This document shows, in pieces, positions 16,124 to 45,482 of a stretch of 64,000 bases of DNA (position 1 is the stretch's first letter; each line of letters opens with the position of its first letter). Below the pieces are notes generated by a model. That model did not search any database. It had not been told where the DNA came from and was given only the letters and a program-made list of their open reading frames with translations. The stretch comes from Candidatus Woesearchaeota archaeon (GTDB taxonomy: Archaea > Nanobdellota > Nanobdellia > SCGC-AAA011-G17 > JACPNG01), in the NCBI GenBank assembly GCA_016185615.1, contig JACPNE010000003.1, forward strand, positions 6,265-70,264, read 5' to 3'. A program made the translations under genes and the position numbers.

Positions 16124-16149
16124 AATTAACCACGATAAATAATTTGTAT

Positions 16150-17109: not shown

Positions 17110-17131
17110 ATTTATTTATTAAAGTTTTCTA

Positions 17132-26526: not shown

Positions 26527-27521
26527 TTTAGCTTGCTTAACAATTCATTCATTGATTCTTTTAGGTTAATCTCCTCTACAGAGTTTGTTATAAACTCTAA
26601 TCTATCAAACATATCATTCCTTACAACCTTACCATTGATTATTATCTGACTTCCCAATAATCTTTCTCTTGCATCAGAAAATTTGTTTATATCCTCTTTT
26701 AAGTTTAAAACTTCTTTATCATCCAACTTTAATATTTTAGAAACATTATCCCTAAAAGCAACTACCCTTATATTATCTGTTCCATCATCAAAGAATAAGT
26801 TTAGGATTGGATTAAAATTCTCCTTGACATTTCCATGTACATCACATTTATACTTGTCTCCATTAAGAGTAAGTTTTTTACTGCATTCTGGGCAAGCCGG
26901 ATAAAATTTAGGCTCAAATAATTGGACTATTGTTCCAACAATAGAAACATTATCTCCTAACTTAAGGTCTTTAATTTTTTTCTTCTGCAGTCTTTTTTGT
27001 AAGTTAATAAAAACATTTCCTACAAACTCATTTTCAGGATTAAGTTGAATAGAACTTGATTTGTTTAGATGTACTTCTTTAAATCCGTTATTTTCCCTTA
27101 TATATCCATTTCTTACTAATAATATATCTCCTTCATTTACTTCTTCCATTGATTTTATCTGTGATTCATCCCATATTACTATCCTTATTGCTCCGGTTTC
27201 ATCCCCAACTAATAAACTCTGCACTTTTCCTTGTCTGTCTTGTTTCTTATATTCTATAACTTCATTCTTTTGAACTATCTTAACAAGAATTTCTATATTT
27301 GAAATTCCAGTCATTAATTCATTAACTTTGTATCTTTTTTTGCTTAAATCAAATATTTTTATTCCTAGTTCATTAGCTACTATATAAGCAGCCCCATCCT
27401 TACTTATCAAATCATTAAGCTGTTTTATTTTAGAATTTACTCTTGATTCTATCTCTTCATTGCTAAGATTCTTTTCTTCTTTTATTCTCTTTACAATGTC
27501 TTCATAAGTCGCTTTGTACAT
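26523..27521 (-). CDS. replication protein A (RPA/RFA) ssDNA-binding protein with zinc finger
   Basis: 332 aa. Two OB-fold-like blocks (..VQSLLVGDETGAIRIVIWD.., ..FFDDGTDNIRVVAFRD..) flank the C4 finger CPECSKK...CDVHG. Confidence 0.8.
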   Translation of the reverse strand: MYKATYEDIVKRIKEEKNLSNEEIESRVNSKIKQLNDLISKDGAAYIVANELGIKIFDLSKKRYKVNELMTGISNIEILVKIVQKNEVIEYKKQDRQGKVQSLLVGDETGAIRIVIWDESQIKSMEEVNEGDILLVRNGYIRENNGFKEVHLNKSSSIQLNPENEFVGNVFINLQKRLQKKKIKDLKLGDNVSIVGTIVQLFEPKFYPACPECSKKLTLNGDKYKCDVHGNVKENFNPILNLFFDDGTDNIRVVAFRDNVSKILKLDDKEVLNLKEDINKFSDARERLLGSQIIINGKVVRNDMFDRLEFITNSVEEINLKESMNELLSKLK

Positions 27522-27525
27522 TTTT

Positions 27526-28467
27526 TCAAAATTGATTAAACTCTTGTTCTACTGCAACAACAGGAATTTGTTTTGTTGCTACAACAGTTTTATATGGATA
27601 AGCTAATTTTATTATTAAAGGATTTTGGAAATAATTAGTTTCTGCTGGTAAACTAACTGTTAAAGTGCAGTAAGCCTCTCTTGTTTTTATCGTATCAGTA
27701 AATTTGATTATATTTTGATTGCAATTAAAAACCCCACTCCCCTCCAGATTAATGGCTCCGGCTATATTCAAACTTCTATCCTCATTATTAATCCGTCCAT
27801 CACTTCCACCAAAATCTTGGAAAGTAATTATTAAAGTTACAAATGCTTGGTCATTAACTGCATCAGTCTGTTGTTTTATGCTAGTTATTGCAACAGGTGA
27901 ATTGCGTGCATCAGGTCCAAGATCATTAATACTAAAGGAAGTTCTCGAAGTACATTCTTGTTCCCTTACATTCGCTTCTTCCCCCTTCACACATAGCTGG
28001 GTTATAAAATCCGCTTCATAGTCATATTCTAACTCTGCTCTTATTGCCGCGTTGGTTAAACTGCTATAAGAATATGCAAAAGTATCAAAATCAATCTCTT
28101 CTTCAACAACGGTTTGTCCAAATTCAGCTTCTCTTCCTTTTATTAAAAAACTTCTTGATATTCTTCCAGGAATAGCTTCTAAATTTCCTGTAGGGGTATC
28201 AGATAAATAAACTATTCCAGAAATATCCTTTGTTCCCCAATTCTGTAATAATGCTTCAACCCTAAAAGGAATCCCAATTCTTATTCTGTCTTGTGGCGGT
28301 TTTCCTTCTACGAATTTTAATGTAACTCCCCTATTAGATAATTGCCCTGGCTGATTAGGATTAACTTCAGTTGCAACATTTCTTGGCTGGGAATTAAAAG
28401 GTAATGTTGCACATCCAGAAACAACTACAACAAGGATTAATACTAATAAAAGAACTATATGCCTCAT
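27526..28467 (-). CDS. lipobox-containing secreted protein (paralogue of 16150-17109), last gene of the pilus-like operon
   Basis: Signal peptide MRHIVLLLVLILVVVVSG-C (lipobox). Collinear similarity to the 319-aa lipoprotein at 16150-17109. Confidence 0.65.
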   Translation of the reverse strand: MRHIVLLLVLILVVVVSGCATLPFNSQPRNVATEVNPNQPGQLSNRGVTLKFVEGKPPQDRIRIGIPFRVEALLQNWGTKDISGIVYLSDTPTGNLEAIPGRISRSFLIKGREAEFGQTVVEEEIDFDTFAYSYSSLTNAAIRAELEYDYEADFITQLCVKGEEANVREQECTSRTSFSINDLGPDARNSPVAITSIKQQTDAVNDQAFVTLIITFQDFGGSDGRINNEDRSLNIAGAINLEGSGVFNCNQNIIKFTDTIKTREAYCTLTVSLPAETNYFQNPLIIKLAYPYKTVVATKQIPVVAVEQEFNQF

Positions 28468-28479
28468 CTAATTAAAAAA

Positions 28480-29994
28480 CTATGGGTTGTTTAAAAGGTT
28501 TTCTGTAAAAAATACTACAGCTCCAGATACACTATTATCTAGTTGTCCAAATAATAAATTTTCAACCTTTCTTATTTCTATAGAAGCATCTTGTGTTACT
28601 CTATAAGTATATCCAGCATCAGCTTGAATTTTATATACTTCTAATAAATCTTGTTCTTGTGGAGCACCTTGTATCATTATTCCACAGTCAAATATTAAAT
28701 TATCCCTAAAACTTGGACATAATTGTGCATCTTTATTGTCAGAGTAGCAATATAATCTTATTCTATCGTTTATATCTTTTATAATTATAGATGATAAGTC
28801 TCCATCAGTAAATGATTCACAACTATCTTGGTTAATCGAAACCCCAGGTTCATTCAATGAACTTATTCTCAAATAATTTAACTTTTCTAAATTTCCACCC
28901 CAAACAAACTTATCTGAAACTGTGTTTATTAATCCAATTTTTATTCTTTCATTTTGTATTGTAAATGGTTGTCTTCCAAATAGTTGAATAGATAAAGGAA
29001 TTGGAGTTCTAGCACCAATTTGTTGTGATCTTATTTCCCCATCCCCTTTCCATAATCCAGAGTTAACTAATCCTTGATATAAATCATTTCTTTCAAATAA
29101 AAGTCTACCTACCCCACTTCTTGCTAAACTATCTTGACTTGTGACATATAGGTCTTGTATTGTTCTAGAGATTACATCATACTTAACATTTAATGTTATT
29201 AGTTTTCCAGTTCTTACTTGATCTTTTACAATACTAAAACTATTTTTTGGAAGAACGCATCTTACTTGCACTTGTCTTGTTATTCCAGAAGCCCCACCCA
29301 TAACAATTGTTGAGACTTCATTTATTCCCTTTGTCCCTTCACCAACTAATTCTATTTGTATTGGACCATTATAATCTTTTGAACTACAAGAGATATCTAA
29401 TCTAATATCATTTTGAACATTTTTTATATTAATTAGTCCATCTAATCTTATTTCTTCATCTTCATTATAAAATCTTCTTAATGATTCAAATTGCTGAATA
29501 ATTACCCCCATCTTCTCAGTAGGTTTTTCTGAGACTACATCTGGATTTTTAAATTCGCCTATCTCTTCTGGATATTTCAAGAATTTTACAAAATTATTAA
29601 CTATTGCGTCTTTTGTAGCTTCAAAGGACCTTCCTAAACTAGCTTCAGCTTTTGAGACAAAAATGTTACATGTTCCTCCTAAATACGGAACAGATTGAAG
29701 AAAAGTTGAACATGAAAAGTAAAAGAAAATTCCGACAATTAATACAACAAAAATCGCTTTTAATAAACTCGGCTTTTTACCATTTCTAACAGTAATGGAG
29801 GTTTGTTGAGGTTGTTGATAAACTGATTGTATTGGTTGAGAAGGTTGAGATTCTCTTCTCCTAAAAGGTGATGTAATAGCATCAAGTGGTTGTTTTGCTA
29901 CTCTCCATCTCCACTGCATTTTTTCCCATCTTCGTCTCTCTAAATTTAATCTTTTTAATTCTTCATCCTCACTTTCCTTTCCCCAAAAAGCCAT
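28480..29994 (-). CDS. membrane-anchored extracellular protein (basic/Gln-rich cytoplasmic N-tail, one TM)
   Basis: The ORF track gives 28480-30024. ATG at 29994 (MAFWGKESEDE...) is preferred because GAGGT precedes it and it clears the upstream stop at 30005-30007. Single TM LLKAIFVVLIVGIFFYF, about 75-90 residues from the N-terminus depending on the start chosen. No known domain recognised. Confidence 0.65.
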   Translation of the reverse strand: MAFWGKESEDEELKRLNLERRRWEKMQWRWRVAKQPLDAITSPFRRRESQPSQPIQSVYQQPQQTSITVRNGKKPSLLKAIFVVLIVGIFFYFSCSTFLQSVPYLGGTCNIFVSKAEASLGRSFEATKDAIVNNFVKFLKYPEEIGEFKNPDVVSEKPTEKMGVIIQQFESLRRFYNEDEEIRLDGLINIKNVQNDIRLDISCSSKDYNGPIQIELVGEGTKGINEVSTIVMGGASGITRQVQVRCVLPKNSFSIVKDQVRTGKLITLNVKYDVISRTIQDLYVTSQDSLARSGVGRLLFERNDLYQGLVNSGLWKGDGEIRSQQIGARTPIPLSIQLFGRQPFTIQNERIKIGLINTVSDKFVWGGNLEKLNYLRISSLNEPGVSINQDSCESFTDGDLSSIIIKDINDRIRLYCYSDNKDAQLCPSFRDNLIFDCGIMIQGAPQEQDLLEVYKIQADAGYTYRVTQDASIEIRKVENLLFGQLDNSVSGAVVFFTENLLNNP

Positions 29995-30004
29995 ATTACC
30001 TCTT

Positions 30005-31246
30005 TTACTCCCTCTCAGGATCAAATTTAAACATTAAAATCATATTTTCTTGGATTAAATTGTTATTTTTGTTTGTTAACAATTTAAAGTTAGTTATAAT
30101 TTCGAATTTAATAAATCTATCTTCTCTATTAAGATTCCATTGAAGTCCTTTTTTATCTTCAATGCAATTGGATAAATCAAAAGTTATGTCTTTCGTTTTT
30201 AGGCATTCTTTAGATTTCATAACTTCACTATGTAACTCATCCAGAATGTTGAAATTAAAATTAATTTTTTCAATGAAAGAAGGATCTCTTTCATATGTTC
30301 CCGTAACTATTGTTTCTCTTTTTATGTCTGAAGATACAACTGATCCTGTTATTCTATTTAATTCGTTATTAACTTTTTTAACATAATTTTGAGTTTCTTT
30401 TAATTCTGGAATTTTTCCTAAACTAGCCACTCTTGATGGACCCGCATTATAAGCAGCTAGTGCTAAATCAATATTTTTGAATTTGTCTAGTTGTAATTTT
30501 AGATAAGCAGTTCCAGTTAAGATATTCAATCTAGGATTAAACTTAGCATCTTCAAAATCCCATTCAACATTAAACTTATTTTTAACATCTTTAAATGCTA
30601 TCTCTCTTATTTGCATCAAACCATATGCATCTTTATTAGAGATTGATGTTGGATTATAATTAGATTCAACATTTATTACAGCCCTTATCAAATTTTCATC
30701 AACATTAAAGGTTTGGCTAGCTTCTTTTATCCAATGATCATATCCAACATCCTTTACAGAAAAATCTATTACTTTCTTTTCTTTTAATGTTATATTATCA
30801 TTGTTTATTTCAAATAAAAGAGAATTTTTAGATTTAACAATGAGATTATTATCTTGAATTGTGTAATCAAAATCCAATTTTGGAATTTTGTTATTTAAAT
30901 TTAAATAATTCTTAAAATTGTTATCAAAGTATAATAGATAGTCTTCTTTATTTGGTTTACATTCATTATTCCAAACAAATTCATTTTCTGATTTACATCC
31001 TTCTTTTCTTAACCCACCATTTTTTCCAAACTCATTTAATGCATCATTGATAGAATTCCTTGCACTCTGTTTTATATATTGCCTAATAAACTCTCCCTTT
31101 TGATATAGTTGAATTATGTCTATTTGATTCTTTCCTGCTTCTCCGGCAATTGATGTATTTGTAGTTAAAACAGTTAATGTGGCATAAGCTAATAAGAACG
31201 CAGTTAATGCAACCAAAGTCGGCAAATAGATTCCTTTTTTGTTCAT
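30005..31246 (-). CDS. prepilin-like N-terminus fused to lytic transglycosylase (SLT, GH23-like) domain
   Basis: N-terminus MNKKG-IYLPTLVALTAFLLAYATL. SLT signatures in order: AVINVESNYNP (catalytic E-S), AYGLMQI, LAAYNAGPSRV. Confidence 0.85.
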   Translation of the reverse strand: MNKKGIYLPTLVALTAFLLAYATLTVLTTNTSIAGEAGKNQIDIIQLYQKGEFIRQYIKQSARNSINDALNEFGKNGGLRKEGCKSENEFVWNNECKPNKEDYLLYFDNNFKNYLNLNNKIPKLDFDYTIQDNNLIVKSKNSLLFEINNDNITLKEKKVIDFSVKDVGYDHWIKEASQTFNVDENLIRAVINVESNYNPTSISNKDAYGLMQIREIAFKDVKNKFNVEWDFEDAKFNPRLNILTGTAYLKLQLDKFKNIDLALAAYNAGPSRVASLGKIPELKETQNYVKKVNNELNRITGSVVSSDIKRETIVTGTYERDPSFIEKINFNFNILDELHSEVMKSKECLKTKDITFDLSNCIEDKKGLQWNLNREDRFIKFEIITNFKLLTNKNNNLIQENMILMFKFDPERE

Positions 31247-31821
31247 GATAATCCTTTAAACAATTTCAGTTTTATATTAACTAAATTCTTTTTATAATCA
31301 GGCAAAGATAATGAATATTCCAGACTATTTCTGAATTTTTTGTCGAATCCAACTAATGGAAGTATTTTTGGTTCAGTTCCAGTAGTTACTATTGCATCTG
31401 TATTAAAAGAGTGTATTATGGGATCATAACCCCCATTCAGGAAGATAGTTTTGTCAGTAAATTTAATTTCTAAATACCATAAGCAGACTTCTTGTGGGTT
31501 ATCTACTAGCATTTTGCTGTCAACTTTGCATATTTTGTTCATTGGTTCTCTTACTTTTTCTTTTATTTTGTCTTTATCGTTTTGATTTAAGATAATAAAT
31601 TCATACAGATTAACATCTTCAATCGGTGTATTCATCAGATTTTTCAATGTCAAACCACCATCATTGCTAACCTTCTTTGAGGTTATTATCTCACTTATAT
31701 TTTTCATATCAGCATATGAAATTTCATTTGCAAACAAAACAAAGAAGACAGTCAATATTATTGCAAGAGTTATTATTGAAAAGCCATCCATTAATCCCTC
31801 TCCCAAAACTCCTTTTTTCAT
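31243..31821 (-). CDS. prepilin-like protein (192 aa)
   Basis: N-terminus MKKG-VLGEGLMDGFSIITLAIILTVFFVLF. ATGA overlaps on both sides. Confidence 0.6.
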   Translation of the reverse strand: MKKGVLGEGLMDGFSIITLAIILTVFFVLFANEISYADMKNISEIITSKKVSNDGGLTLKNLMNTPIEDVNLYEFIILNQNDKDKIKEKVREPMNKICKVDSKMLVDNPQEVCLWYLEIKFTDKTIFLNGGYDPIIHSFNTDAIVTTGTEPKILPLVGFDKKFRNSLEYSLSLPDYKKNLVNIKLKLFKGLS

Positions 31822-32285
31822 TGGACTATTACCTCTGCTTTTAATATATCATAACTAACTTTACCATTATTTGAAACTAGAACATATTGCTGGCTTTTGA
31901 ATAAACATTGTTTTTGTTTATTTCCAACTTGGCAAAGATTAAAAGCATCTCTATAATTTTCTATGTTAGATATTGTTTTTTCATTATTTTCTAACTCTAA
32001 TTTTATTGGATAGTTTAATCCAATACAATTTCTCAATCTTTCTTCAGTAAATTTACTAATATCTATCTCTCCTGGCTCAATAACAACATTTTGCAATGCA
32101 AAACATTCAGAAGAGTAATACAATTTTCTTATTGTTAAGTCTGCTATTGACTCATTAATATTTATCTCTCTAGCTATAGCTGAATTTACTACAAAAAATA
32201 CTGCACCGAGAATGATGATAGTTAACAATATTCTATTTATCCATAATAATGTCTCTCCAGAGATCATATAAGCGCCCTTTTTCAT
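31818..32285 (-). CDS. prepilin-like protein (155 aa)
   Basis: N-terminus MKKG-AYMISGETLLWINRILLTIIILGAVFFVV. ATGA overlaps on both sides. Confidence 0.6.
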   Translation of the reverse strand: MKKGAYMISGETLLWINRILLTIIILGAVFFVVNSAIAREININESIADLTIRKLYYSSECFALQNVVIEPGEIDISKFTEERLRNCIGLNYPIKLELENNEKTISNIENYRDAFNLCQVGNKQKQCLFKSQQYVLVSNNGKVSYDILKAEVIVQ

Positions 32286-33118
32286 GTTATTTTATTCCTC
32301 TCTATAGAATCTTTATAGCTATAAGCATACATATTATCAAAACAATTTGAATTTGATTTGAAAGAAAGGCTATTAGGATCAAAATAATTAATCGGATCCT
32401 CTACTTTTCCATTGATAACAAGTTCAAAATGTAAATGTGGTTCATATTGTGTGTGGCTTTTTGGTCCATGTTGCCCAGATTTAGCTATTAGCTCCCCTTT
32501 TCTAACTTCACAATTTTCTACACAATTAAATCCACTTAATTTTATTTCTTTTGATAATTTATCTAGATGCAAATATCTAGTAATAACTCCATTCCTATGT
32601 TCAATAGTTAACGAATTCTCAGTTCCGGCCCCATTAACATATGTTTTTATTATTCCATCTTCTATAACAAAAACATCTTCATAATTGGCTCTCAAATCTA
32701 CTCCTTCATGATAAGAAGTTCCTTCGCTTATTTGCCTATTACCGAAGCAGGAGGTAACTATTTTTTGATTTACTGGGAAGACAAAATCAGTTGTTCTTAT
32801 GGCAAGATTCTTTTTCTGTTCTCTTATAAGCAAATTTATATTTGGAGAATAAGTTGAAAATATCTTATTTGATGAAATTTTATTTCCACTTATATCAAGA
32901 TTTCTGTCACCATATTGATAATTTAAATTTAGTTTGCCAGGAGAAAGCTGGGCAGTATTTAATAATAATGATGTATCCAAGGACACATACCTATCAGAAA
33001 ATCCAGATGCTTCAGCAGTTCTATCTATCATAAAGATAGTAGTTATAACAACAAATCCAACTAGAAGAAGATAAAAAGCCCACAAGATGGTTCTTTCTTC
33101 TTCACCCCTTTTATCCAT
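32282..33118 (-). CDS. prepilin-like/TM N-terminus fused to M23 (LytM/lysostaphin-type) metallopeptidase domain
   Basis: N-terminus MDKRG-EEERTILWAFYLLLVGFVVITTIF. M23 zinc motifs HxxxD (SYHEGVDL) and HxH (EPHLHFEL), with intervening TIEHRNGVITRYLHL. Confidence 0.85.
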   Translation of the reverse strand: MDKRGEEERTILWAFYLLLVGFVVITTIFMIDRTAEASGFSDRYVSLDTSLLLNTAQLSPGKLNLNYQYGDRNLDISGNKISSNKIFSTYSPNINLLIREQKKNLAIRTTDFVFPVNQKIVTSCFGNRQISEGTSYHEGVDLRANYEDVFVIEDGIIKTYVNGAGTENSLTIEHRNGVITRYLHLDKLSKEIKLSGFNCVENCEVRKGELIAKSGQHGPKSHTQYEPHLHFELVINGKVEDPINYFDPNSLSFKSNSNCFDNMYAYSYKDSIERNKIT

Positions 33119-33136
33119 GTATCTAAACTTATTACT

Positions 33137-33592
33137 TTATTTATTATTGTTTTGGTCTATAGAAACCCCTGAAGAGTCATATCTTATCTTTAGTACTCCT
33201 CCCCCACTTGAAATTTCTCCAGAATTTTTGAATTTTTTGTTGACTTCTTTACATTCAAATTTCTCGCATGATAAATCTAAGCACAGGCATAAACAACTTC
33301 TTAAAGTGCATACTGGAGACTGCTGTTTAATTTTATCGTTTATTGAGTCTGGATTTAAGTATTCTATTAAATATCCGTCTTTTAAGTTGTAATATGTCTC
33401 AATAAACGGATTATTTAGGCTTAATTTATCTATATCTCTGGAAATATATTCAAATGAATTGTAGCTCTGTTTGTCTATTGTGCTATACTGTGGCAATAGA
33501 CCAATAAAAGAACTTGATACATTATAAAGAACAAGAAGGACAATAACCCCAACTATTAATCCAACTACGGCCTTGCCCGTTATTAAAGTCAT
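33137..33592 (-). CDS. prepilin-like protein (151 aa, Cys-containing)
   Basis: N-terminus MTLITGKA-VVGLIVGVIVLLVLY. Distal CTLRSCLCLCLDLSCEKFEC Cys cluster. Confidence 0.55.
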   Translation of the reverse strand: MTLITGKAVVGLIVGVIVLLVLYNVSSSFIGLLPQYSTIDKQSYNSFEYISRDIDKLSLNNPFIETYYNLKDGYLIEYLNPDSINDKIKQQSPVCTLRSCLCLCLDLSCEKFECKEVNKKFKNSGEISSGGGVLKIRYDSSGVSIDQNNNK

Positions 33593-33629
33593 AAATTAAT
33601 GATTTAAAAGAAGTAATTAAATGTTTTTA

Positions 33630-34082
33630 TTAACATGTAATTTCTGGGCAACCAACGCCCAAATCTAAGATACTATTTGATCCATATCTTTCTTTTATTA
33701 AACCCTCATTAGTTCTAGCCTTATCACTACATGTATAAACAGTATCATATTTCCCGTCACTACCTATGTTTGATCTGCCATCTATCACAAAAGCAGTATT
33801 ACAATAAGCTGAATTTTTTCTTAAATTTCCTGTATCTGGTAGTAACTTAGCTTGATCACAAAATTGTTGACAGCTTTGAACAGCTAAAACCTCATCAGTC
33901 CCTGCTGTAGTCGAGTAAAATGTAGATTTTATTCTATCTGTTAGCCCTTTAAAACCACCAAAAAAGAATGTAACAACAACAACTAAAACTAGAATAGCTA
34001 ATATTGCAATTATGATTGTGTTTAGAGTTAAACTTTGACCTCTTTTGTCCATCTTTTTTTGCATAAAGATATTAGTAATCAT
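33630..34082 (-). CDS. candidate major pilin (class III signal KRG-Q, Cys-rich globular part)
   Basis: ..MQKKMDKRG-QSLTLNTIIIAILAILVLVVVVTFFFGG, with Q at +1 as in many archaeal pilins. The start is probably ATG 34064 or 34052, because TATA-like ttttatatata abuts the first ATG. An 89-bp upstream spacer is present. 7 Cys in the C-terminal part. Confidence 0.65.
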   Translation of the reverse strand: MITNIFMQKKMDKRGQSLTLNTIIIAILAILVLVVVVTFFFGGFKGLTDRIKSTFYSTTAGTDEVLAVQSCQQFCDQAKLLPDTGNLRKNSAYCNTAFVIDGRSNIGSDGKYDTVYTCSDKARTNEGLIKERYGSNSILDLGVGCPEITC

Positions 34083-34171
34083 GTATATATAAAAGTTATG
34101 GTAAATTTATTTTCTAAACTTATATGTAAATGATTATGTTTTGTAACAGATAATAAGATTAATGTTTTATA

Positions 34172-35590
34172 CTAATTCGATTTTGCTATACAAGAATCGC
34201 TTTTGATTATACATCCTGTTGCTGAAAATCCACATGGATCTTGTTCACATAAAGGTTGCCATTCATGTGTGCGTAGTCTTGTATCGTGCCCGCTTGGGTT
34301 AATTGATTTGCTACTGTATGCATCGCAACTTTTTAGAGTTATGGTTGCACAGGAGAAACAGCTACCAGTATTGCCTCCAGTCCATCCCCAAGGAGCATAA
34401 TCATTTACAGTATCCTTCCAATAACATCTAAACAACCCATTACCAAATCCTTTATTTTTTCTTTCACAAACTGAATAATCAATATTTTTTGTGTTCTCTA
34501 AACAATCATTTTTAAGACTATTTTTAAAAGTAGTTGATTTGATTCCTAAACTATTTGGAAATTCTTCCAATAGTTTAGAATAGTATAAATAATAAATAGT
34601 TTGATCTTCTGTTATACATCTATCCGCTATTTCTCTTAATGCTTCAGCAAAAATAGGTTTATTCTTATCTTCAACCCCATTATTGTTAATTAAATATAAA
34701 TTTTCATAAGATTTCCTATCAACATATTGTCTTAGTTTAATCTGGAATTCTTGACAACTAGGATTTTGTTTAGCATTTAGAAGAGCAGTTTTATAATTTA
34801 TACTATTCTTAAAAGATTTCATTACTTGTGTATCTTTACTTAATAATTCTCTAAAATTTTCATCATTAGATAAAGTTCTTAATGCTTCTAAAGTATCTGC
34901 TTTTATATAAGCGGATTTTAATTCTTCAAATTTTTTTTCATTTCCTTCAAATGATTTTTGAACTTTTTCTAGTTCTTCCAATCTTTTTTTGATAGAATCT
35001 GGAAGCCCATTAGGGAAATGCTTTAATGCTTCAGATTTAGCTAAATCAATTCTATCTTTTGTAGGATTAGAGATGGCAGCATCTATTAAACTATTTACTA
35101 TAAATAGTTTATCTTCTTGACTGGTTACTCCTGCTCCTAATGAAGCTATACCTTGTAAATTAGAGTTCATTTTATAACAGTTAATTAACTTAATTCTTAA
35201 ATCCCTAGATAACTTTTCTTTGTCAGTCACTTCATGTTTTTTAATTTCATTCAATGCATCATTATACTCTTTAGTTAATTGAACAACATTATCAGAATTA
35301 CATTCTCCACGATCTGCTAATAATGATATAACTTTGTCCCTTCTACCATCTTTGCTTAATAATCCAAAAGTATTATCAATAATTGGTTTTACACCCTCTG
35401 TTAATCCAATAGCTGTATCCCCTAGTTTACCAACCCCTTTTGATAAAGCAGGCCAATATTTAAAGATAAACATAATTATTATAATTAAAACTGCTATTGC
35501 TATTATTCCATTAATAAATTTCCACCATTCTCCTTCTCCTTTTTTGTTCAATTTATTTTTTATATTTCTCTTTTTTTTCATTTCAACCAA
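34172..35590 (-). CDS. large prepilin-like/TM-anchored extracellular protein (472 aa, helical middle, Cys-rich C-terminus)
   Basis: N-terminus ..NKLNKKG-EGEWWKFINGIIAIAVLIIIIMFIF. The C-terminal ~110 aa contain 13 Cys. Confidence 0.6.
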   Translation of the reverse strand: MVEMKKKRNIKNKLNKKGEGEWWKFINGIIAIAVLIIIIMFIFKYWPALSKGVGKLGDTAIGLTEGVKPIIDNTFGLLSKDGRRDKVISLLADRGECNSDNVVQLTKEYNDALNEIKKHEVTDKEKLSRDLRIKLINCYKMNSNLQGIASLGAGVTSQEDKLFIVNSLIDAAISNPTKDRIDLAKSEALKHFPNGLPDSIKKRLEELEKVQKSFEGNEKKFEELKSAYIKADTLEALRTLSNDENFRELLSKDTQVMKSFKNSINYKTALLNAKQNPSCQEFQIKLRQYVDRKSYENLYLINNNGVEDKNKPIFAEALREIADRCITEDQTIYYLYYSKLLEEFPNSLGIKSTTFKNSLKNDCLENTKNIDYSVCERKNKGFGNGLFRCYWKDTVNDYAPWGWTGGNTGSCFSCATITLKSCDAYSSKSINPSGHDTRLRTHEWQPLCEQDPCGFSATGCIIKSDSCIAKSN

Positions 35591-35720
35591 AACTAGTTAA
35601 CTTTAACAAAGCATCTTTTAAGTTATTTATATTTGTTAGAAAAATTATAACCAATACTAAAACTATTAACACAATTATTGCGCTTGCAATTTGCCAAAAT
35701 TCAAATCCTTTTTTATCCAT
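35583..35720 (-). CDS. 45-aa minimal prepilin-like micro-protein
   Basis: Unlisted ORF, translated manually: MDKKG-FEFWQIASAIIVLIVLVLVIIFLTNINNLKDALLKLTSFG. Its start abuts the stop of the preceding micro-ORF. Confidence 0.5.
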   Translation of the reverse strand: MDKKGFEFWQIASAIIVLIVLVLVIIFLTNINNLKDALLKLTSFG

Positions 35721-35861
35721 CTAAAAATTCTCCTTTAGTTTTAATAAGATATTTGACATCTGATCCTTAAATATTATAGCTAAATAAACAACTATTACTA
35801 TTACTATAACCATGATTATTAGTTTAGCAACAGTTTCCCAATGAAATTCTCCTTTTTCCAT
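35721..35861 (-). CDS. 46-aa minimal prepilin-like micro-protein
   Basis: Unlisted ORF: MEKG-EFHWETVAKLIIMVIVIVIVVYLAIIFKDQMSNILLKLKENF. Same architecture as the neighbouring 45-aa ORF (shared ..N.LLKL.. tail). Confidence 0.5.
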   Translation of the reverse strand: MEKGEFHWETVAKLIIMVIVIVIVVYLAIIFKDQMSNILLKLKENF

Positions 35862-35896
35862 TATATCATAATTGTTTGGTTATTTAATAAAATTTG

Positions 35897-36769
35897 TTAT
35901 CTCGCATAACCAGTGCATAATTCTTTAACTCCTTCCGAATCTGTCGCAATAATCAACGAATTAAATCCTTTACTTTGTAGAAGAGCATTAGCTCCCCCAG
36001 TGCCAACAGCCAGTAATCCGCCACCTATAAGCGCATATGGTTTAGATATATATTTGATGCCAGGAATATTTGCAATTATAACTGCTGTAGCTACTGTTGT
36101 AACAGCCCCCCTTCCAATTCTATTTAATATTCCTTCTTTTTTATTCACTATAAACAAAACAAATAATGATTTATCTTTTGTTATTTCAAGATCTTGTAAT
36201 CCAGCAACTAATTGATTTTCTCTTGTACCTGTCCCAGTTATATAATCTAAGTATGTTCTCTTATCAAGGAGTGGTTTCGGCTTATTATCTCTTAAATAAA
36301 TCGCCATTTCCTCATTGCTTATCTTAATCTCATTTTCAGAGCTTATTTTAGAACAGACATAACAAAGATCATTATCCTTAAACCACCCAGTATAATCTAT
36401 GTCACCATAAAAATTAAATTTTCCCTCTCCAAACCTTCCCCAACAGTTTGCCATCTCTTTTGCTATAACCTTTTTAGCTTCTTCTTTGGTTTTTACATTT
36501 TCTGAGTTAGTCTTACAATTAAGATTAAAAGGAGAGTTAACTTGTGGTACAATACTACCTGCAACTGGAGCTTTTTCTAACACAGCACCAACACCATATG
36601 TTTTGCTATATGTTTTTATAACAACACTAGAAAAACATATTGTATCATTAATATTGTCTAAAACAAATGGTTTCCAAAAATATATTAAGATTAAGAATAA
36701 GACAATTAAAGATATTGTTAACCCAATTAATCCAGTAATTATTGAAAATTCTCCTTTTTTTTCAGCCAA
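35897..36769 (-). CDS. prepilin-like protein (290 aa) with additional Gly-rich hydrophobic C-terminal segments
   Basis: TTG start in the ORF track. N-terminus MAEKKG-EFSIITGLIGLTISLIVLFLIL. C-terminal ..AVTTVATAVIIANIPG..ALIGGGLLAVGTGGANALL. Confidence 0.6.
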   Translation of the reverse strand: MAEKKGEFSIITGLIGLTISLIVLFLILIYFWKPFVLDNINDTICFSSVVIKTYSKTYGVGAVLEKAPVAGSIVPQVNSPFNLNCKTNSENVKTKEEAKKVIAKEMANCWGRFGEGKFNFYGDIDYTGWFKDNDLCYVCSKISSENEIKISNEEMAIYLRDNKPKPLLDKRTYLDYITGTGTRENQLVAGLQDLEITKDKSLFVLFIVNKKEGILNRIGRGAVTTVATAVIIANIPGIKYISKPYALIGGGLLAVGTGGANALLQSKGFNSLIIATDSEGVKELCTGYAR

Positions 36770-36869
36770 AACTTTTCACCAATCCATAAATTATCCCAAA
36801 AATCAAGACTATAAAAAATATTATTAATATCAATATTGCTACGGTTTCTAATCCATGCTCATCTTCCAT
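36762..36869 (-). CDS. 35-aa hydrophobic micro-protein (first ORF of the pilin operon)
   Basis: Unlisted ORF: MEDEHG-LETVAILILIIFFIVLIFGIIYGLVKSFG. It ends in SFG like the 45-aa ORF and overlaps the start of the 290-aa gene. TATA-like tttataaatatttaaata lies upstream. Confidence 0.4.
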   Translation of the reverse strand: MEDEHGLETVAILILIIFFIVLIFGIIYGLVKSFG

Positions 36870-36994
36870 AGTTAAATTTTGGTTTATAAATATTTAAATA
36901 TTATGATAAATGTTAGATTTTTATGGGTTTATTAGAAAAAATTGTATCTAAATCAAAATTATTAGCTGCTCAAATTTATCATTATTATTATGTA

Positions 36995-37186
36995 TTAATG
37001 AAATTTATTAATGCTTATTCCATATAATACTGCTATGGCACCTATTCCTACAATAATGATTTGATATGTTGCTCCTGAACTTGGAATTATTTTTACAGCT
37101 TCTGGAATAAATTCATAACTAGATATTAATGGCCATATTCCTCCCAACATTGTTAGGATTCCAACAAATGTTATCATCAGTTTCAT
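36995..37186 (-). CDS. small 2-TM membrane protein
   Basis: 63 aa with two hydrophobic helices. Directly follows the 222-aa membrane protein (1-nt spacer). Confidence 0.5.
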   Translation of the reverse strand: MKLMITFVGILTMLGGIWPLISSYEFIPEAVKIIPSSGATYQIIIVGIGAIAVLYGISINKFH

Positions 37187-37187
37187 T

Positions 37188-37856
37188 TTAAGTTGTTGAT
37201 TTTTTTATTATTCCCCAAACTATTAAAGCTATTGATCCCAAAAATGCTATATTAAACCATGGCATTAAGTCTATAGGAATTGCAGGACTAAAAATAAAAA
37301 AATTAAAACCAGTGTACTGGTCCAATAAACCAAAATAAGCCATATAAAATACAATGTATGCTCCACCCATTCCAATTAATCCTGAACCAGTAGTCTGATC
37401 TAAGATACTATAAACAAAAACTGAAAGTAGGATTATGATTATGAAAAATGCCCAAGGTCCAAAATTTTCTAATAATGAAAATCCGGTTTGTCTTTCCCAA
37501 ATTAACAAAGCTATTGATAAAAATATTCCTAGTCCAACATAAACAGCTTTTCCTCCTCCCTCTAAATGTTTTCCTAAGATTGATTGTCCTAAACCTAAGA
37601 ATATAGCTAAAAATATTCCCAAATCAAAAAAACTTGTATACTGATAATACAATTCTAGAATATCAAATTGATCATAACCTAAACCATATCCCCTATAAAC
37701 TGCTCCAGAAGTAAAATTTCCAGAGATTAAAAATAATACAAATATTCCAAGGAAGATACTCCCAGTTATTGCTATCTTGCTAGAGATATTATGAAGAGTT
37801 ATTCTATACTCTTCTTTTTTCTGAGTCCTCTTTTTCTTCATTATTATCCTAAACAA
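37188..37856 (-). CDS. polytopic membrane protein with internally duplicated LENFG/FD-type motif (family shared with 43471-45119)
   Basis: 222 aa. The segments SFFDLGIFLAIFLGLGQSILGKHLEGG and LLENFGPWAFFIIIILLSVFVYSILDQTTGSG both resemble the N-termini of the three paralogues at 43.5-45.1 kb. Confidence 0.6.
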   Translation of the reverse strand: MFRIIMKKKRTQKKEEYRITLHNISSKIAITGSIFLGIFVLFLISGNFTSGAVYRGYGLGYDQFDILELYYQYTSFFDLGIFLAIFLGLGQSILGKHLEGGGKAVYVGLGIFLSIALLIWERQTGFSLLENFGPWAFFIIIILLSVFVYSILDQTTGSGLIGMGGAYIVFYMAYFGLLDQYTGFNFFIFSPAIPIDLMPWFNIAFLGSIALIVWGIIKKSTT

Positions 37857-37879
37857 TACAAATTATATAAACCTTTCTC

Positions 37880-40045
37880 TCAAGCCACAGAAGTTATAAC
37901 ATTAATTCCATTCGCTAATACATTAAATACAAATATTCCAATTAATGATATAATAAAGTATAATCCAACCCCAAATATTAAACTTTTCCCAAGTTCATAT
38001 TTTCTCATAATCTTATCATCATTATTTTCAATTGCATTCCTTAAAATTGTTAATACAATTATTATTTCTAAGATATAAATTCCTATAACCAATTGAAAAT
38101 GAAAGCTTGGGATTACATCCTCTATCCTTAATATTTCTATTAATCCTTGTAAATTTCCAACCCCTTCCTCATTTGTCAGAGATACTGATTTGAACTGCTC
38201 CCCAAGCTTATTTATTATTGTAACAACCATTGAAGCGACTCCGACAACAATTGCTGCTATCATTGGTGCTAAGAAACTCGCTTGAGATTTCATGCTGCTT
38301 ATTATTTCTGCTAATAAATCTTTCATCCTTTCAGCCACCTTATGAATTCTATCTGCATAAACTGAGATGCTGATAAGACTCTTTGATACAACTTCAGGGC
38401 CTTTCTTAGCACTCTCAATCAAAACTTTCATGCTACTTTCAATTAGTTTAGAAGGAAAGTAAAGCAATGCTCCCCTTTCTTGATTGAATATTGCTTCATT
38501 AACGCTCATTCCCAGTTTTCTAATATTTATATTTACAATTCTAAAGAAGTTTCCTGTTGGCGTTCCTTCCAAGTCTTCTGAAATTTTTCCGAATGCCGAT
38601 TCAACAGGAATTCCACTGCCAACCCTATTTCCTAATTGAAACAAACTTCCTGTAAACTCTCTTTCTAGTTTATCTGTCTCTCTTTTGATGTCAATTAAAT
38701 TTTTTGTGTTTGCTTTGTAATACATTCCAATTGCTAAAGCCAATCCTAATGGGACAAATAAACTAAGTATCAAAGACCAAATCCCATATGGCCCGATGTA
38801 TTTATTACATACCCCATTTATTTCTTCTAAACATTTGTAATCAAGAAGTTTGCCGCCAATCCCCTCCTCCAAGAATCCAACCTGATCAAAATCATTAGTA
38901 ATTAAATGTAGCAAAACGGGCATAAATCCAATTAGTAAAAAAACAAATCCGATTAATAAAGAGATTAATAATGCTGAATCATTTTTATATTTTTTAACTT
39001 CTGGATTATTCTCAAATAAATCACTCTCTCCAAAACCACTAACTCTTTTTGATAAAATATTAATTCCTAATATTAAGACTAAAGGGGGAAGTAAAAAATT
39101 GTAGATAATTGATAAATGCCACCATTTAACTGCACCCCTCAAGAAACTTGAAACTAAAGGAAATATTACAATTCCCAATATTGGCAATATAATTCCAAGC
39201 ATATGTAACATTGTAATTGGAGAATTTAACTCATGTGCAAAATGTAACATCTTGTCATATGTTCCATCAAGCATGACTTCTAAGCTCTTATCAAGCAAAG
39301 CGACTCTTTTTGATTCATTAGGCTCTTGTAAACTTGCTTCAATTAAATGTAAAGATTCTACAAACTCTAAATTATAATTTTTCCATCCCTCTAAATAAAC
39401 ATCAAGACTTTCTTTCATTGTTGAATATTTATCGGTTTCAACATCCCAGAAAACTTTTCTTAAATCCAAAGCCATTGGATTTCCTATGTGCTCCCCAGCA
39501 AATTTAATTGCTCTTTCTAAATTGCTTGTATGTCTCATATACATAACAACATAAAGAATGCATAAAACCATTTGATTACTTGCCTTTAGTCTATATCTGT
39601 TAGCCAAATAATTTGGTATTTTGCTTAATGGCTTTATTATTAATGCTCCTAACAACAACAGGAATAACGGGGTAAAGATTAATATTTCTCCAAGAAAAAA
39701 TGAAACTAAAGCAACTATGGCTGCAATTAGTATTATTATTCCGGCTAAAATAACTGAAAAACTATAAGCCCCAATTGGAGTTATGTCTAAATGTAATATG
39801 TTTATTGATTTTTGTAATTCTTCTTCATCTTTTTGTTGAGGTTTTATCTTGATAATCCCTTCGGAAAAATTGCATAAATTTTCATAAATTGTTGTTTTTT
39901 TATCCAATAATTCTTTTCTGAATATATCATATTCTCTGGAAAACACCTCATTTGTTGGAAGATTTTCAAAAGAAAGATTTGATGTGCTTTCTAATTTTTT
40001 GCTATACTCTCCAAGAATCCTCTTTGTTTTTTCATCAATCTGCAT
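37880..40045 (-). CDS. type IV pilus/archaellum-type platform membrane protein (FlaJ/TadC/PilC-like)
   Basis: 721 aa, with many TM helices interleaved with two soluble helical regions. Immediately downstream of the secretion ATPase (1-nt spacer). The assignment is by architecture and position, not by motif. Confidence 0.65.
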   Translation of the reverse strand: MQIDEKTKRILGEYSKKLESTSNLSFENLPTNEVFSREYDIFRKELLDKKTTIYENLCNFSEGIIKIKPQQKDEEELQKSINILHLDITPIGAYSFSVILAGIIILIAAIVALVSFFLGEILIFTPLFLLLLGALIIKPLSKIPNYLANRYRLKASNQMVLCILYVVMYMRHTSNLERAIKFAGEHIGNPMALDLRKVFWDVETDKYSTMKESLDVYLEGWKNYNLEFVESLHLIEASLQEPNESKRVALLDKSLEVMLDGTYDKMLHFAHELNSPITMLHMLGIILPILGIVIFPLVSSFLRGAVKWWHLSIIYNFLLPPLVLILGINILSKRVSGFGESDLFENNPEVKKYKNDSALLISLLIGFVFLLIGFMPVLLHLITNDFDQVGFLEEGIGGKLLDYKCLEEINGVCNKYIGPYGIWSLILSLFVPLGLALAIGMYYKANTKNLIDIKRETDKLEREFTGSLFQLGNRVGSGIPVESAFGKISEDLEGTPTGNFFRIVNINIRKLGMSVNEAIFNQERGALLYFPSKLIESSMKVLIESAKKGPEVVSKSLISISVYADRIHKVAERMKDLLAEIISSMKSQASFLAPMIAAIVVGVASMVVTIINKLGEQFKSVSLTNEEGVGNLQGLIEILRIEDVIPSFHFQLVIGIYILEIIIVLTILRNAIENNDDKIMRKYELGKSLIFGVGLYFIISLIGIFVFNVLANGINVITSVA

Positions 40046-40046
40046 C

Positions 40047-42308
40047 TTAAAGCTGTCTCATTCTTATTCTTCTTTTTAACCATTCTTCCCAACTAAAAAA
40101 TATTCTCTTATTGTCAAGGTATCCAACTTCTTCTTTCACTATCTCGCTTATCCTATGGAATTGGTCATTCGAGTCTATAACAAACTTAGCTTCTAATAAT
40201 GAATCATTTTTTAGTTTATCTGCATAATTAACTAGTGTTTCTTTTATTTTTGCTCTTAATAATATATTTTCCCAGATAGCATCCCAGTTACCAGCCCACT
40301 CCTTAACATTTCCGCCTATCTCCTTGATTATTTCACTGTCTCCGTTTATCAAGTCATCAGTAGGAATTAGCATGTCTTTCTTTGTATCATATTTCATCAG
40401 ATCAACAAATCCTCTTTCTCTCAATGGATCTTCTTCCCAATGTTTTCTTACTTCAGTTATTTGGGTAATCCTCCTCCATTTATGCAACCCATCCGGACTT
40501 TTCATTGGATTTGCAACAACAATGATGTCTGTTGCTTTAAAGCTAGTTTTTGGAACTTTCAAATCATTTACAACCCTATCAAATACCCCATAAGGAGAAT
40601 CTCCATGTATTGTACCAGCAACGACATTTGCTAATGCACCTATTCTCATAGCTTCATAAAGTGCAAATGCTTCCAAACTTCTTATCTCCCCAATTATTAA
40701 GCTAGAGTCTCCTAATCTTAGTGCTGTTCTTATCCCCTCATCAGCAGCTACTTCAGTTCCTCCTTTTGTCAAAGCACTTCTAACTTTCATCTGTTGGACA
40801 TTATATCCTAATTCTCTTAGGGCATCAACTGGCAATTCTAAAGTATCTTCTAATGTTATTATTCTATACTTTCTCATTATCTCAACCAAAATTGATCCCA
40901 ATAAGCTAGTTTTTCCAGAACTTCTAGTTCCTGCAACTAACATTGTTCTTGAGCCATCTATTAAGAAACTCAATAATCCTGATCCTAATGGACTTATCAT
41001 CCCATTTTTAATGAATAATGGCAAAGTCCAAGGCTTATCTCTATGTCTTCTTAGGGCATAAGCTAATCCATATGGATTTAATGGTCTTTGTATTATTGCA
41101 ACTCTTGCCCTTGAGCTTGGTAAAATTAATTCTGTATCAAGTATTGGATTTGCTTCATCTAATGGTCTTCCACTTAATATCCTAAACTTTGATGCCCATG
41201 ACTCTGCATCCTCATTGCTAGGAACTAAATTTGTTGAACATTCACCATAATCCTCATGAACTAGGAATATTGGTGTTTGTCCTACTGGAGCATTTAACGT
41301 TATATCTTGTACTTTTTTGTCTTCTAATAAAATTTCTAGTACACCAAAGCCAATAGTATATCTAACTAATATTTGTGCTAGTTCATTTAATTCTTCAAAT
41401 GTAACCTCTACATTTCTTGATTCAGCTAATTCTTGTAATAAATCCCTTCCAATATTAAAGAAAGTATTTCTCATTTTTTCTGGCTCTAGGAATTCTTCCT
41501 CTCTGGGCTTGTGTTCTGCTAATACCCCTCTAGCTAAATCCAATAATTCATATTTATCTTCTGTTAATTTAAATTCAGGGGGAGTTAAATGATATAATGA
41601 TTTTATATCTTTCTCAGTATTGTATATTACAACATCGCTTTCTCCGAAAGAATAAACACTTAATTGCTCTCCGTCTAATGGGTGCTGTGCCATTAATCTT
41701 GTAAACATAAAATCTGGGGTAATAATCGGTCTAAAGATAGATGAATACAAACTTCTGTCTCCAATTTTATAAGCTGCTAAATTTTTTCTTGCTACATTGA
41801 TTAATTTTGTTTTATCTAATATCCCGTAGACATATTCTAATATATTGATATAAGACTGTTGAACCTCAACTAAATCAAGAGGAACTTTATTTAATTTTAT
41901 TTTTTCTTCTCTTATTAATCGTCTTAATTCAATATACGCTCCAAGTGGATCTGCTCTAAGTAAATTTATGATTAGATCTTGTAATTTAGTCTGCCATTCA
42001 GCTAAAAAATTCATGGCTCCTGGTTTTGAAGCTATGTCTGCTAAAGTTAAAATTTTTTTCTGTTTAATAAGCATTTTATACAAATTGGCAATCTCAACAA
42101 GCATCTGTGTTTGTTCATATCCATAGCTATAATTTCTTCTTTGAGTAAAAACTATTCTTCCTGTACTTGGAACTTGGACTAAATAGTCTATAGTTTTAGC
42201 CATCACAACAGCATTACCTTCTATACTAGGAACAAAACTCCATTGATTAGCATTTATTCTAAGAATATCCTCTCTTCCCTCTTTTAGAACTTGATAATCT
42301 TCTGTCAT
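40047..42308 (-). CDS. type II/IV secretion-system family ATPase (FlaI/PilB/VirB11 superfamily) with long N-terminal extension
   Basis: Walker A AGTRSSGKTS, Asp-box/Walker B region TLEDTLEL...SSLIIGEIRSLEA, His-box AGTIHG. 753 aa. Confidence 0.85.
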   Translation of the reverse strand: MTEDYQVLKEGREDILRINANQWSFVPSIEGNAVVMAKTIDYLVQVPSTGRIVFTQRRNYSYGYEQTQMLVEIANLYKMLIKQKKILTLADIASKPGAMNFLAEWQTKLQDLIINLLRADPLGAYIELRRLIREEKIKLNKVPLDLVEVQQSYINILEYVYGILDKTKLINVARKNLAAYKIGDRSLYSSIFRPIITPDFMFTRLMAQHPLDGEQLSVYSFGESDVVIYNTEKDIKSLYHLTPPEFKLTEDKYELLDLARGVLAEHKPREEEFLEPEKMRNTFFNIGRDLLQELAESRNVEVTFEELNELAQILVRYTIGFGVLEILLEDKKVQDITLNAPVGQTPIFLVHEDYGECSTNLVPSNEDAESWASKFRILSGRPLDEANPILDTELILPSSRARVAIIQRPLNPYGLAYALRRHRDKPWTLPLFIKNGMISPLGSGLLSFLIDGSRTMLVAGTRSSGKTSLLGSILVEIMRKYRIITLEDTLELPVDALRELGYNVQQMKVRSALTKGGTEVAADEGIRTALRLGDSSLIIGEIRSLEAFALYEAMRIGALANVVAGTIHGDSPYGVFDRVVNDLKVPKTSFKATDIIVVANPMKSPDGLHKWRRITQITEVRKHWEEDPLRERGFVDLMKYDTKKDMLIPTDDLINGDSEIIKEIGGNVKEWAGNWDAIWENILLRAKIKETLVNYADKLKNDSLLEAKFVIDSNDQFHRISEIVKEEVGYLDNKRIFFSWEEWLKRRIRMRQL

Positions 42309-44004: not shown

Positions 44005-44016
44005 TTTTAATTACTT

Positions 44017-45119: not shown

Positions 45120-45149
45120 AATCTACTAAAGAATAAATAGTATAAAAAT

Positions 45150-45425: not shown

Positions 45426-45482
45426 TTTTACCTCCCTATGGTTTTAGAAAGTATTTTAAGTATTTAAAAATTTATCTCCAAA

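Follow-up and report, generated by a model that had tools for sequence, protein, structure and literature searches.

Archaeal type IV pili and related type IV filaments (TFF), such as those encoded by the Epd, Aap and 'system 1-4' loci (Makarova, Koonin and Albers; Sivabalasarma and Albers, 2026), share a FlaI/GspE-type ATPase, a polytopic platform protein, an A24 peptidase and subunits whose leaders end in K/R-G. These elements are also found in a 64,000-nucleotide stretch of DNA from Candidatus Woesearchaeota archaeon (assembly GCA_016185615.1, contig JACPNE010000003.1), hereafter the window, where a tightly packed run of minus-strand genes at 27526-42308 comprises an ATPase gene, a platform gene and a block of prepilin-like genes. 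Compared with the described archaeal systems, the platform is here a single protein of 721 amino acids (aa), which is missed by Pfam and NCBIfam and belongs to an isolated family of ~1,300 clusters, and the ATPase carries an N-terminal extension of ~290 aa. The distinctive feature of the locus is, however, that murein hydrolases are grafted onto conserved subunits, the machine itself being ordinary for the lineage.

Bacteria are known to have modular pilins (PMC10191384, PMC9934059), such as PilB and PilC of Streptococcus sanguinis, in which a pilin module is joined to an extra functional one. The same design can be recognised here in a scaffold with a class III signal and a separable module, the scaffold occurring module-free in relatives and unarmed orthologues aligning to the scaffold only, but the system is archaeal, its modules have enzymatic functions (M23, SLT and Amidase_2) and one of them is internal rather than C-terminal. 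The modules characterised in bacterial pilins are generally adhesive (vWA, lectin). Hydrolases of the same bacterial type, GH23/SLT and M23, have been described in Woesearchaeota and other archaea and read as tools against bacteria or signs of interaction with them (Castelle 2015, for AR20; PMC9723730; PMC8204110; PMC12352652). In the texts of the last three reports the words 'pili' and 'pilin' appear nowhere, 'pilus' is absent from two and 'class III' from one, and the text of a 2026 survey of archaeal TFF (10.64898/2026.04.22.720090) nowhere contains 'peptidoglycan', 'hydrolase' or 'M23'; the literature searched in full text held no description of hydrolase-bearing pilins in archaea. Type IV pilus genes of DPANN archaea and murein hydrolases of Woesearchaeota have thus each been reported before, separately. 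The present case is an ordinary, lineage-wide TFF machine with a divergent platform, whose subunits have repeatedly gained wall-cutting modules. We interpret it as the Woesearchaeota/Nanoarchaeia version of a type IV filament assembly system, bearing modular subunits that cut walls and are aimed at those of bacteria, and give this interpretation a probability of roughly 60%.

The two hydrolases of the window are carried by the first and the last gene of a cassette of four that closes the pilin block (all features lie on the minus strand unless indicated). Gene 1 (32282-33118) encodes a modular prepilin-like protein of 278 aa, in which residues 1-112 correspond to the conserved subunit and residues ~136-242 to an M23 metallopeptidase (Pfam 1.7e-15, 57.4 bits, cutoff 28.7) with the zinc-binding motifs HxxxD and HxH in place (HEGVD at residue 137, HLH at 228). 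Genes 2 (31818-32285; 155 aa, overlapping each neighbour by 4 nt and with orthologues in ~30 loci) and 3 (31243-31821; 192 aa, with a class-III-like N-terminus) are prepilin-like without such cargo. Gene 4 (30005-31246), the last and largest, encodes 413 aa made up of a helix and beta-sheet module, an inserted SLT domain (Pfam 9.2e-26) and a C-terminal alpha/beta domain; the SLT motifs E194-S, GLMQ (209) and AYNAG (265) are invariant in 8 homologues. In an AlphaFold2 (AF2) model of this protein, with a predicted local distance difference test score (pLDDT) of 78, the N-terminus is a long helix (7-28 and 31-75) that leads into a beta-sheet (89-156), together a pilin-like module of residues 7-156, after which the SLT domain (~170-300) sits between two low-confidence linkers, ahead of the alpha/beta domain; Foldseek retrieved Slt70, MltC and MltE with this model, E values reaching down to 1.3e-7. 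The M23 and SLT catalytic residues are intact, and to judge from these motifs both enzymes are apparently active. The first-pass annotation of this DNA had proposed that two pilin-like proteins carry enzymatic cargo, and the two Pfam matches agree with it.

That the enzymes are additions to conserved subunits is seen in L001, the closest relative with full genomic context, whose platform protein is 82% identical to that of the window and which is unarmed, that is, has no hydrolase on its subunits. Its orthologue of the M23 subunit has 114 aa and aligns to residues 1-110, whereas its counterpart of the SLT subunit, at 267 aa, matches residues 12-161 and, beyond a gap, 297-411, so that exactly the SLT domain is skipped. 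Because the L001 orthologues align to the scaffold parts only, both enzymes are grafts, M23 having been appended and SLT inserted. Four overlapping genes (by 4-8 nt, for products of ~130, 160, 165 and 250 aa) close the block in most related loci, the overlaps in the window being of 4 nt each.

Armed loci were counted in a census of 41 'complete' loci, all non-redundant and with 8.5 kb or more of sequence downstream of the platform gene. As a database query, the SLT subunit without its SLT domain retrieved just 6 proteins, and the counts of armed and unarmed loci therefore come from this census. Seven of the 41 loci are armed, and in six of these a glycan-cleaving enzyme is combined with one that cleaves peptide or amide bonds. 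M23 and SLT occupy the same two positions in L004 (platform 79% identical) and in L003 and L034 (~54%), which form a single clade with the window in a tree of platform proteins; L001 is nested inside this clade and has therefore probably lost both domains. The remaining armed loci, L077, L038 and L082, represent three other clades and bear their enzymes on scaffolds other than the window's. In L077 one class-III-like protein of 682 aa (15192-17237) has both SLT (6.4e-20) and M23 (4.1e-26), in L038 one of 560 aa (14554-16233) combines SLT (5.2e-26) with Amidase_2 (5.4e-30), and L082 has SLT only. The N-terminal parts have unarmed homologues in sister loci, namely in L075, L057 and L080 in the case of L077 and in L083 in that of L038. 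Arming has occurred at least three times independently, on three distinct scaffold subunits and with SLT, M23 or Amidase_2 as the enzyme. Among the class-III-like proteins of these loci, 65 have 300 aa or more, and in them murein hydrolases are the sole recurrent enzymatic Pfam domains (SLT in 5, M23 in 4, Amidase_2 in 1), and the only other recurrent match is to collagen repeats (n=2). The AR20 locus (L053) is unarmed.

Three further observations concern these loci. The proteins with collagen triple-helix repeats, class-III-like and of ~730 aa, are encoded directly after the platform gene in L019 (12410-14593) and in one other locus, and represent another type of cargo or spacer. In L011 the platform gene is immediately followed by an oppositely oriented gene (8099-8830, minus strand) for an SLT protein without a class-III-like N-terminus. 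Finally, the window genotype, recognised by an identical platform protein (L085), and the distant armed locus L003 come from one metagenome (JGI sample 3300025323), so that two armed Woesearchaeota lineages co-occur in one sample.

As for the machine, the first-pass annotation had described a type-IV-filament-type apparatus, distinct from an archaellum, with a secretion ATPase encoded at 40047-42308. This holds on each count. The ATPase (753 aa, with one Cys in the whole protein) has a FlaI/GspE2/CpaF-like C-terminal half, in which the three motif strings were located, namely Walker A AGTRSSGKTS at residue 459, SSLIIGEIRSLEA with the Asp-box at 535 and the His box AGTIHG at 564. It matches Pfam T2SSE above the cutoff (8.1e-15, 54.8 bits, cutoff 24.9), and its relatives of solved structure are GspE2 of A. 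fulgidus (2oap, 9.2e-28), CpaF (7.5e-24) and FlaI (1.2e-15). The NCBIfam matches to FlaI (8.9e-35; 120 bits, cutoff 550) and TadA (2.4e-34; 119 bits, cutoff 373) are both far under the equivalog cutoffs, as is the BasE score (59.9 bits, cutoff 1000). An archaellum was rejected on the FlaI score and because archaellin, FlaF/G, FlaH, FlaC/D/E and FlaX were unmatched in the block. A Tad/Flp pilus has a TadA/CpaF ATPase, two platform genes (TadB, TadC) and Flp pilins of ~50-60 aa; here the TadA score is below its cutoff, CpaF is the second-best structural match, the platform is one fused protein of 721 aa, and two genes encode pilin-like proteins of 45-46 aa, with a sub-threshold Flp1_like match in one of them. 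The reading as a type IV filament machine thus draws on this T2SSE ATPase together with a remote T2SSF platform, an A24 peptidase and class-III-like subunits, considered below.

The platform gene (37880-40045) lies 1 nt downstream of the ATPase gene, and its polytopic product was identified from its predicted fold and by transitive homology. It has no Pfam or NCBIfam match of its own, and among 33 relatives at least 52% identical to it T2SSF is matched weakly by only five, with 0.0093 as the best value. With an AF2 model of pLDDT 77 and a predicted template-modelling (TM) score, pTM, of 0.71, Foldseek found the cytoplasmic domains of EpsF (2vmb/3c1q), OutF (5nbg) and PilC (2whn), at probabilities of 0.94-1.0, target-normalised TM scores of 0.68-0.74 and a root-mean-square deviation of ~3 Å over 110-121 columns; rank 3 in this search was the PilC chain of a model of the type IVa pilus machine. 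An exhaustive profile search closed the family at 1,291 clusters at 50% identity. Of 42 divergent members, with ~25-37% mutual identity, 20 match Pfam T2SSF (best 7.4e-9) and 4 match SpoIIIAB, and a profile built from these members has EpsF as its top match in the PDB (E 0.021). Given the fold match, the T2SSF matches of divergent members and the EpsF-topped profile, the 721-aa protein is a very divergent, single-gene platform of the GspF/PilC/TadC type (T2SSF superfamily), and ~1,300 unannotated membrane-protein clusters are thereby placed in the PilC/GspF platform superfamily. A profile of close homologues searched against PDB sequences gave spurious matches to G-protein-coupled receptors and was discarded. 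Comparison by hhalign of the two halves of the protein, and of its two cytoplasmic domains, revealed no internal sequence repeat, and a duplication in the style of T2SSF is therefore not shown at the sequence level. The FlaJ/TadC/PilC role suggested earlier from gene position thus fails a direct T2SSF comparison, the window protein having no match, and is recovered indirectly, through the fold, the 20 divergent members and EpsF.

Relatives of this platform were found in 468 species-representative genomes, and the 80 platform loci listed are nearly all titled Woesearchaeota, Nanoarchaeia/Nanoarchaeota or 'archaeon', one metagenome-assembled genome (MAG) being labelled 'bacterium'. The nearest relatives of the window proteins are likewise from MAGs labelled Candidatus Woesearchaeota or Nanoarchaeia. 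The window has ~30% GC, and its archaeal housekeeping genes are those for RadA, for an RPA-like protein and for a tRNA that probably has an intron.

Overlooked by the first-pass annotation, a gene for a class III (prepilin) signal peptidase of family A24 is present on the plus strand at 21460-22362, 15 kb from the machine locus. Read from its probable start, TTG 21517, which follows a GGAG-like site, it matches Pfam Peptidase_A24 (3e-12, 47.4 bits, cutoff 26.5) and contains SDIKTKEVPD and GGGD. This peptidase is likely to be the processing enzyme for all class-III-like proteins of the window.

The presumed substrates of this enzyme are encoded by ten consecutive open reading frames (ORFs) running from 36769 down to 30005, in which K or R followed by G or A occurs within the first 3-14 residues and a hydrophobic stretch follows directly. 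The series starts with a 290-aa protein with 6 Cys (35897-36769, TTG start; (M)AEKKG-EFSIITGLIGL), called as an identical gene by the JGI and ENA pipelines and with orthologues in most loci. Next come two short products, a Flp-like prepilin of 46 aa (35721-35861; MEKG-EFHWETVAKLII), kept in many loci and with a weak match to Pfam Flp1_like (3.6e-5, 23.6 bits, under the cutoff of 33.5), and one of 45 aa (35583-35720; MDKKG-FEFWQIASAII). They are followed by a 469-aa protein (34172-35581; ...NKKG-EGEWWKFINGIIAIAVL) with a Cys-rich ectodomain (14 Cys) and no family match in Pfam or NCBIfam. The most conserved subunit is the product of ~140-150 aa encoded at 33630-34082 (MDKRG-QSLTLNTIIIAILAIL; 6 Cys), which has orthologues in nearly all loci (1e-6 to 1e-48), weakly resembles an archaellin chain (8rh5, E 0.11) and is regarded here as a candidate major pilin. 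Between it and the cassette lies the gene for a K-A variant of 151 aa (33137-33592; MTLITGKA-VVGLIVG), whose L001 orthologue reads KKA. The subunit ectodomains have even numbers of Cys, from 2 to 14, as against a single Cys in the 753-aa ATPase, a feature that fits extracellular, disulfide-bonded proteins.

The clustering of such N-termini in the window is far beyond chance, since only 12 of the 231 ORFs that start with ATG and encode 30 aa or more show the pattern, nine of them inside the 7-kb block. Across 83 related loci, ORFs with an N-terminal transmembrane helix have K/R-G/A just before it in 341 of 584 cases (58%) downstream of the platform gene, as against 37 of 540 (7%) elsewhere, with leaders mostly of 4-7 residues and the consensus M-N-K-K-G. 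Within the census, 38 of the 41 loci have 5-12 same-strand class-III-like ORFs after the platform gene, and three have one or none; the block thus travels with the ATPase/platform pair, which bears out the earlier claim that it is conserved with the core in relatives. The same figure corrects two other claims of the first-pass annotation, which had considered both the size and heterogeneity of the pilin set and the extra membrane proteins attached to the core to be unusual: they are the norm for this lineage. Its estimate of about 12 prepilin-like ORFs is reduced to ten, the class-III-like nature of their N-termini being retained. A 35-aa ORF at 36762-36869 (MEDEHG) was rejected as a gene, as it is without K/R, occurs in 2 of 51 loci (window included) and is left uncalled by other pipelines, and the last two products of the run have an internal anchor and a lipoprotein signal, respectively. 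The three exceptions in the census (L009, L044 and L063, from Sandtown Nanoarchaeia MAGs) have the ATPase/platform pair followed by 0-1 class-III-like ORFs in 10 kb, so that their subunit genes must be elsewhere or absent.

In the mechanism that we propose, the ATPase and the divergent single-gene platform would assemble the subunits once the A24 peptidase, the gene of which lies at a distance of 15 kb, had cut off their short M-x-K-K-G leaders. The set would consist of the candidate major pilin of ~140 aa, the two Flp-like pilins of ~45 aa, several larger subunits and the terminal four-gene cassette, whose translationally coupled products may act as a minor-pilin set for the tip or for priming. 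Like the bacterial GspH-I-J-K and FimU-PilV-W-X sets, the cassette has four consecutive, coupled genes, and its last member is the largest and, as in GspK, has an inserted domain; no sequence or fold match to those proteins was seen, however, and a complex in tip position is proposed here by analogy. The first and last subunits of the cassette have turned modular, one through an appended M23 endopeptidase and the other through an SLT (GH23) domain inserted on flexible linkers. After processing they would enter the filament, most likely at its tip, so that enzymes for both the glycan strands and the peptides of murein would be presented on contact to a bacterial cell, either host or prey, whose wall would be opened locally, allowing firm attachment and access. 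A bacterial wall is put forward as substrate because murein is normally absent from archaea and because published work gives an anti-bacterial reading to the hydrolases of Woesearchaeota. The earlier idea of an 'attack apparatus' is in this light plausible. We hold more tentatively, at somewhat under even odds, to an 'armed pilus' in the full sense, in which the four-subunit tip set would have been converted at least three times independently, on three scaffolds and with lytic transglycosylase, M23 or amidase domains, into a contact-dependent device for cutting murein.

Several considerations weigh against this interpretation. Filament formation, and the entry of such large subunits into the filament, are proposed from sequence features; the tip location is drawn from analogy with the GspH-K and FimU-PilVWX sets, and bacterial murein is suggested as the target by the enzyme families. 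Hydrolases are missing from 34 of the 41 loci, and the enzymes are therefore accessory to the machine. A Pfam search with the ten N-terminal segments, at E values up to 10, retrieved none of the pilin, N_methyl and Class_IIIsignal families, its results being noise apart from the sub-threshold Flp1_like match. In addition, several N-termini have acidic residues at +1 to +3, which we take to be unusual under the FlaFind rule.

Woesearchaeota and Nanoarchaeia are very abundant and uncultured, and their hydrolases had previously been tied to no delivery structure in the reports that describe them (PMC9723730, PMC8204110, PMC12352652). Hydrolases built into pilus-type subunits offer a concrete model of how these cells engage bacteria, and the distinction between armed and unarmed loci provides a simple genomic marker to predict which lineages target bacteria. 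The idea of functionalised, modular pilins, so far a bacterial one centred on adhesion, is thereby extended to archaea and to enzymes. The armed pilus, if true, would be a cross-domain attack organelle without described counterpart, able to breach the walls of bacterial hosts or prey, and would mark Woesearchaeota lineages that live on bacteria rather than on archaea.

The strongest of the alternative explanations is a surface display similar to the bindosome or to a type II secretion system, in which a short pseudopilus or an envelope array would hold hydrolases that digest murein debris or dead walls for nutrients. The Sulfolobus bindosome (Bas) is the precedent, as class III signals there likewise deliver functional, non-filament proteins (sugar-binding ones) by means of a dedicated ATPase/platform pair; widespread 'functionalised' archaeal TFF machineries have been proposed in a 2026 survey (10.64898/2026.04.22.720090), the enzyme modules of the window sit on flexible linkers, and scavenging of cell components has been suggested for DPANN archaea (PMC9723730). 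The cargo here consists, however, of wall hydrolases instead of solute-binding proteins, and the locus encodes a small conserved candidate major pilin and Flp-like pilins of 45 aa, typical of real filaments. Identity with the bindosome itself was discarded on the BasE score given above, and no solute- or substrate-binding domains were found in the block. A glycan and a peptide cutter paired on structural subunits fit the breaching of a wall at least equally well as the digestion of debris, and we consider display for nutrition doubtful, though it deserves to be kept in mind.

A second alternative would have the hydrolases open the producer's own wall for passage of the filament, as VirB1, FlgJ or pilus-associated transglycosylases do. 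The presence of SLT and M23 inside the operon is in line with it, and in bacteria the loci for secretion systems and pili often include a gene for a lytic transglycosylase. Yet assembly does not need them, as 34 of 41 loci are hydrolase-free and L001 has probably lost both enzymes and kept the whole machine, and the enzymes are fused to exported subunits instead of being separate periplasmic proteins. The usual lack of murein in archaea also speaks against this possibility, as does the published reading of Woesearchaeota murein hydrolases as acting on bacteria (PMC8204110, PMC12352652), and we regard it as very improbable.

The N-termini could also be ordinary Sec signal anchors, the downstream ORFs being unrelated surface proteins that happen to lie beside an ATPase/platform pair. 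No subunit falls in a curated pilin family, and synteny in these small genomes is kept even with unrelated housekeeping genes (RPA, YdjM, RadA), two facts that this explanation would accommodate. It has hardly any credibility, on the other hand, in view of ten successive ORFs with the motif, of its frequency right before the helix in the block (58%, against 7% elsewhere), of the A24 peptidase and of a block that accompanies the ATPase and platform genes in 38 of 41 loci.

Most unlikely as well is a filament for uptake of DNA or other macromolecules, comparable to a competence pilus, with hydrolases that release or reach the substrate and RPA and RadA processing incoming DNA, since, even if the pilin block ends 0-60 nt before the gene for the RPA-like single-stranded DNA-binding protein in most loci (4 nt in the window), with YdjM and RadA genes next, and DPANN archaea are described in the literature as being without many biosynthetic pathways, RPA and RadA are housekeeping proteins linked to the block purely by position, and neither a pilin that binds DNA nor a ComEC-like channel nor a retraction ATPase was recognised among its products.

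Besides the ATPase and platform, the core includes two accessory membrane proteins. The polytopic one (37188-37856; 217-222 aa) has no family match in Pfam or NCBIfam, and its orthologues are found directly 3' of the platform gene in many, not all, related loci. A small two-helix protein of 63 aa (36995-37186), encoded 1 nt after the preceding gene, is kept in a subset of loci. The core is separated from the pilin block by an A/T-rich intergenic spacer of 125 nt (36870-36994), a possible site for a separate promoter of the block, in which TTTAAATATTTATAAA is located ~20-30 nt before the next ORF; this TATA-like string was discarded as evidence for a promoter, being expected by chance in DNA of 29% GC. 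In L001 two opposite-strand genes are inserted at the position of the spacer, which implies that core and pilin block are separable units.

At the other end of the run, the two products that are not prepilin-like are clade-specific. One is a protein of 504 aa (28480-29994) with a basic cytoplasmic N-terminus, one internal membrane anchor and a Cys-containing ectodomain, without family match and with orthologues in L001, L003 and L004 only; the other, of 313 aa (27526-28467), is of the lipoprotein type, with a signal ending in VSGC (MRHIVLLLVLILVVVVSGC), and has orthologues in L003 and L004. Genes for the RPA-like protein, YdjM and RadA (26062-27521 and 24644-25603) come after the pilin block, each separated from or overlapping its neighbour by 4 nt, in a position that is kept in most related loci, so that the last genes of the block may be co-transcribed with RPA.

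Upstream of the machine, counts were made on 51 loci with enough upstream sequence, the window itself included. Two coiled-coil proteins are encoded divergently from the ATPase (42392-42838 and 42858-43481, plus strand), and three paralogous membrane proteins of ~180 aa are found beyond them (43471-44004, 44017-44574 and 44574-45119, minus strand). These genes (42392-45119) are kept in 49-50 of the 51 loci, and their products have no informative family matches. A wider block, 42392-46875, which adds a PRC-barrel protein, TraB/PrgY and an M50 protease, is kept in 47-50 of the 51. The upstream genes were considered as parts of the machine and left uncertain, as linkage is no proof of shared function where housekeeping genes are equally syntenic.

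Elsewhere in the window, three further minus-strand genes encode class-III-like N-termini. The product of 17132-18424 begins with MKSKRG-EAGTNIAALILI and its gene adjoins a lipoprotein-like one (16150-17109), and that of 1411-3381 begins with MKSKKREDKKA-QVTIFVIVGL. The third gene (57693-58280; MQKRG-QTTIFIILGIV) is directly upstream of one (54290-57712) for a surface protein of 1140 aa that contains MopE-type metal-binding repeats and TSP3 repeats. Finally, the tRNA gene mentioned above (94 nt, 4499-4592, minus strand) was given an abnormal anticodon of 4 bases by ARAGORN, and probably corresponds to an intron-containing archaeal tRNA.

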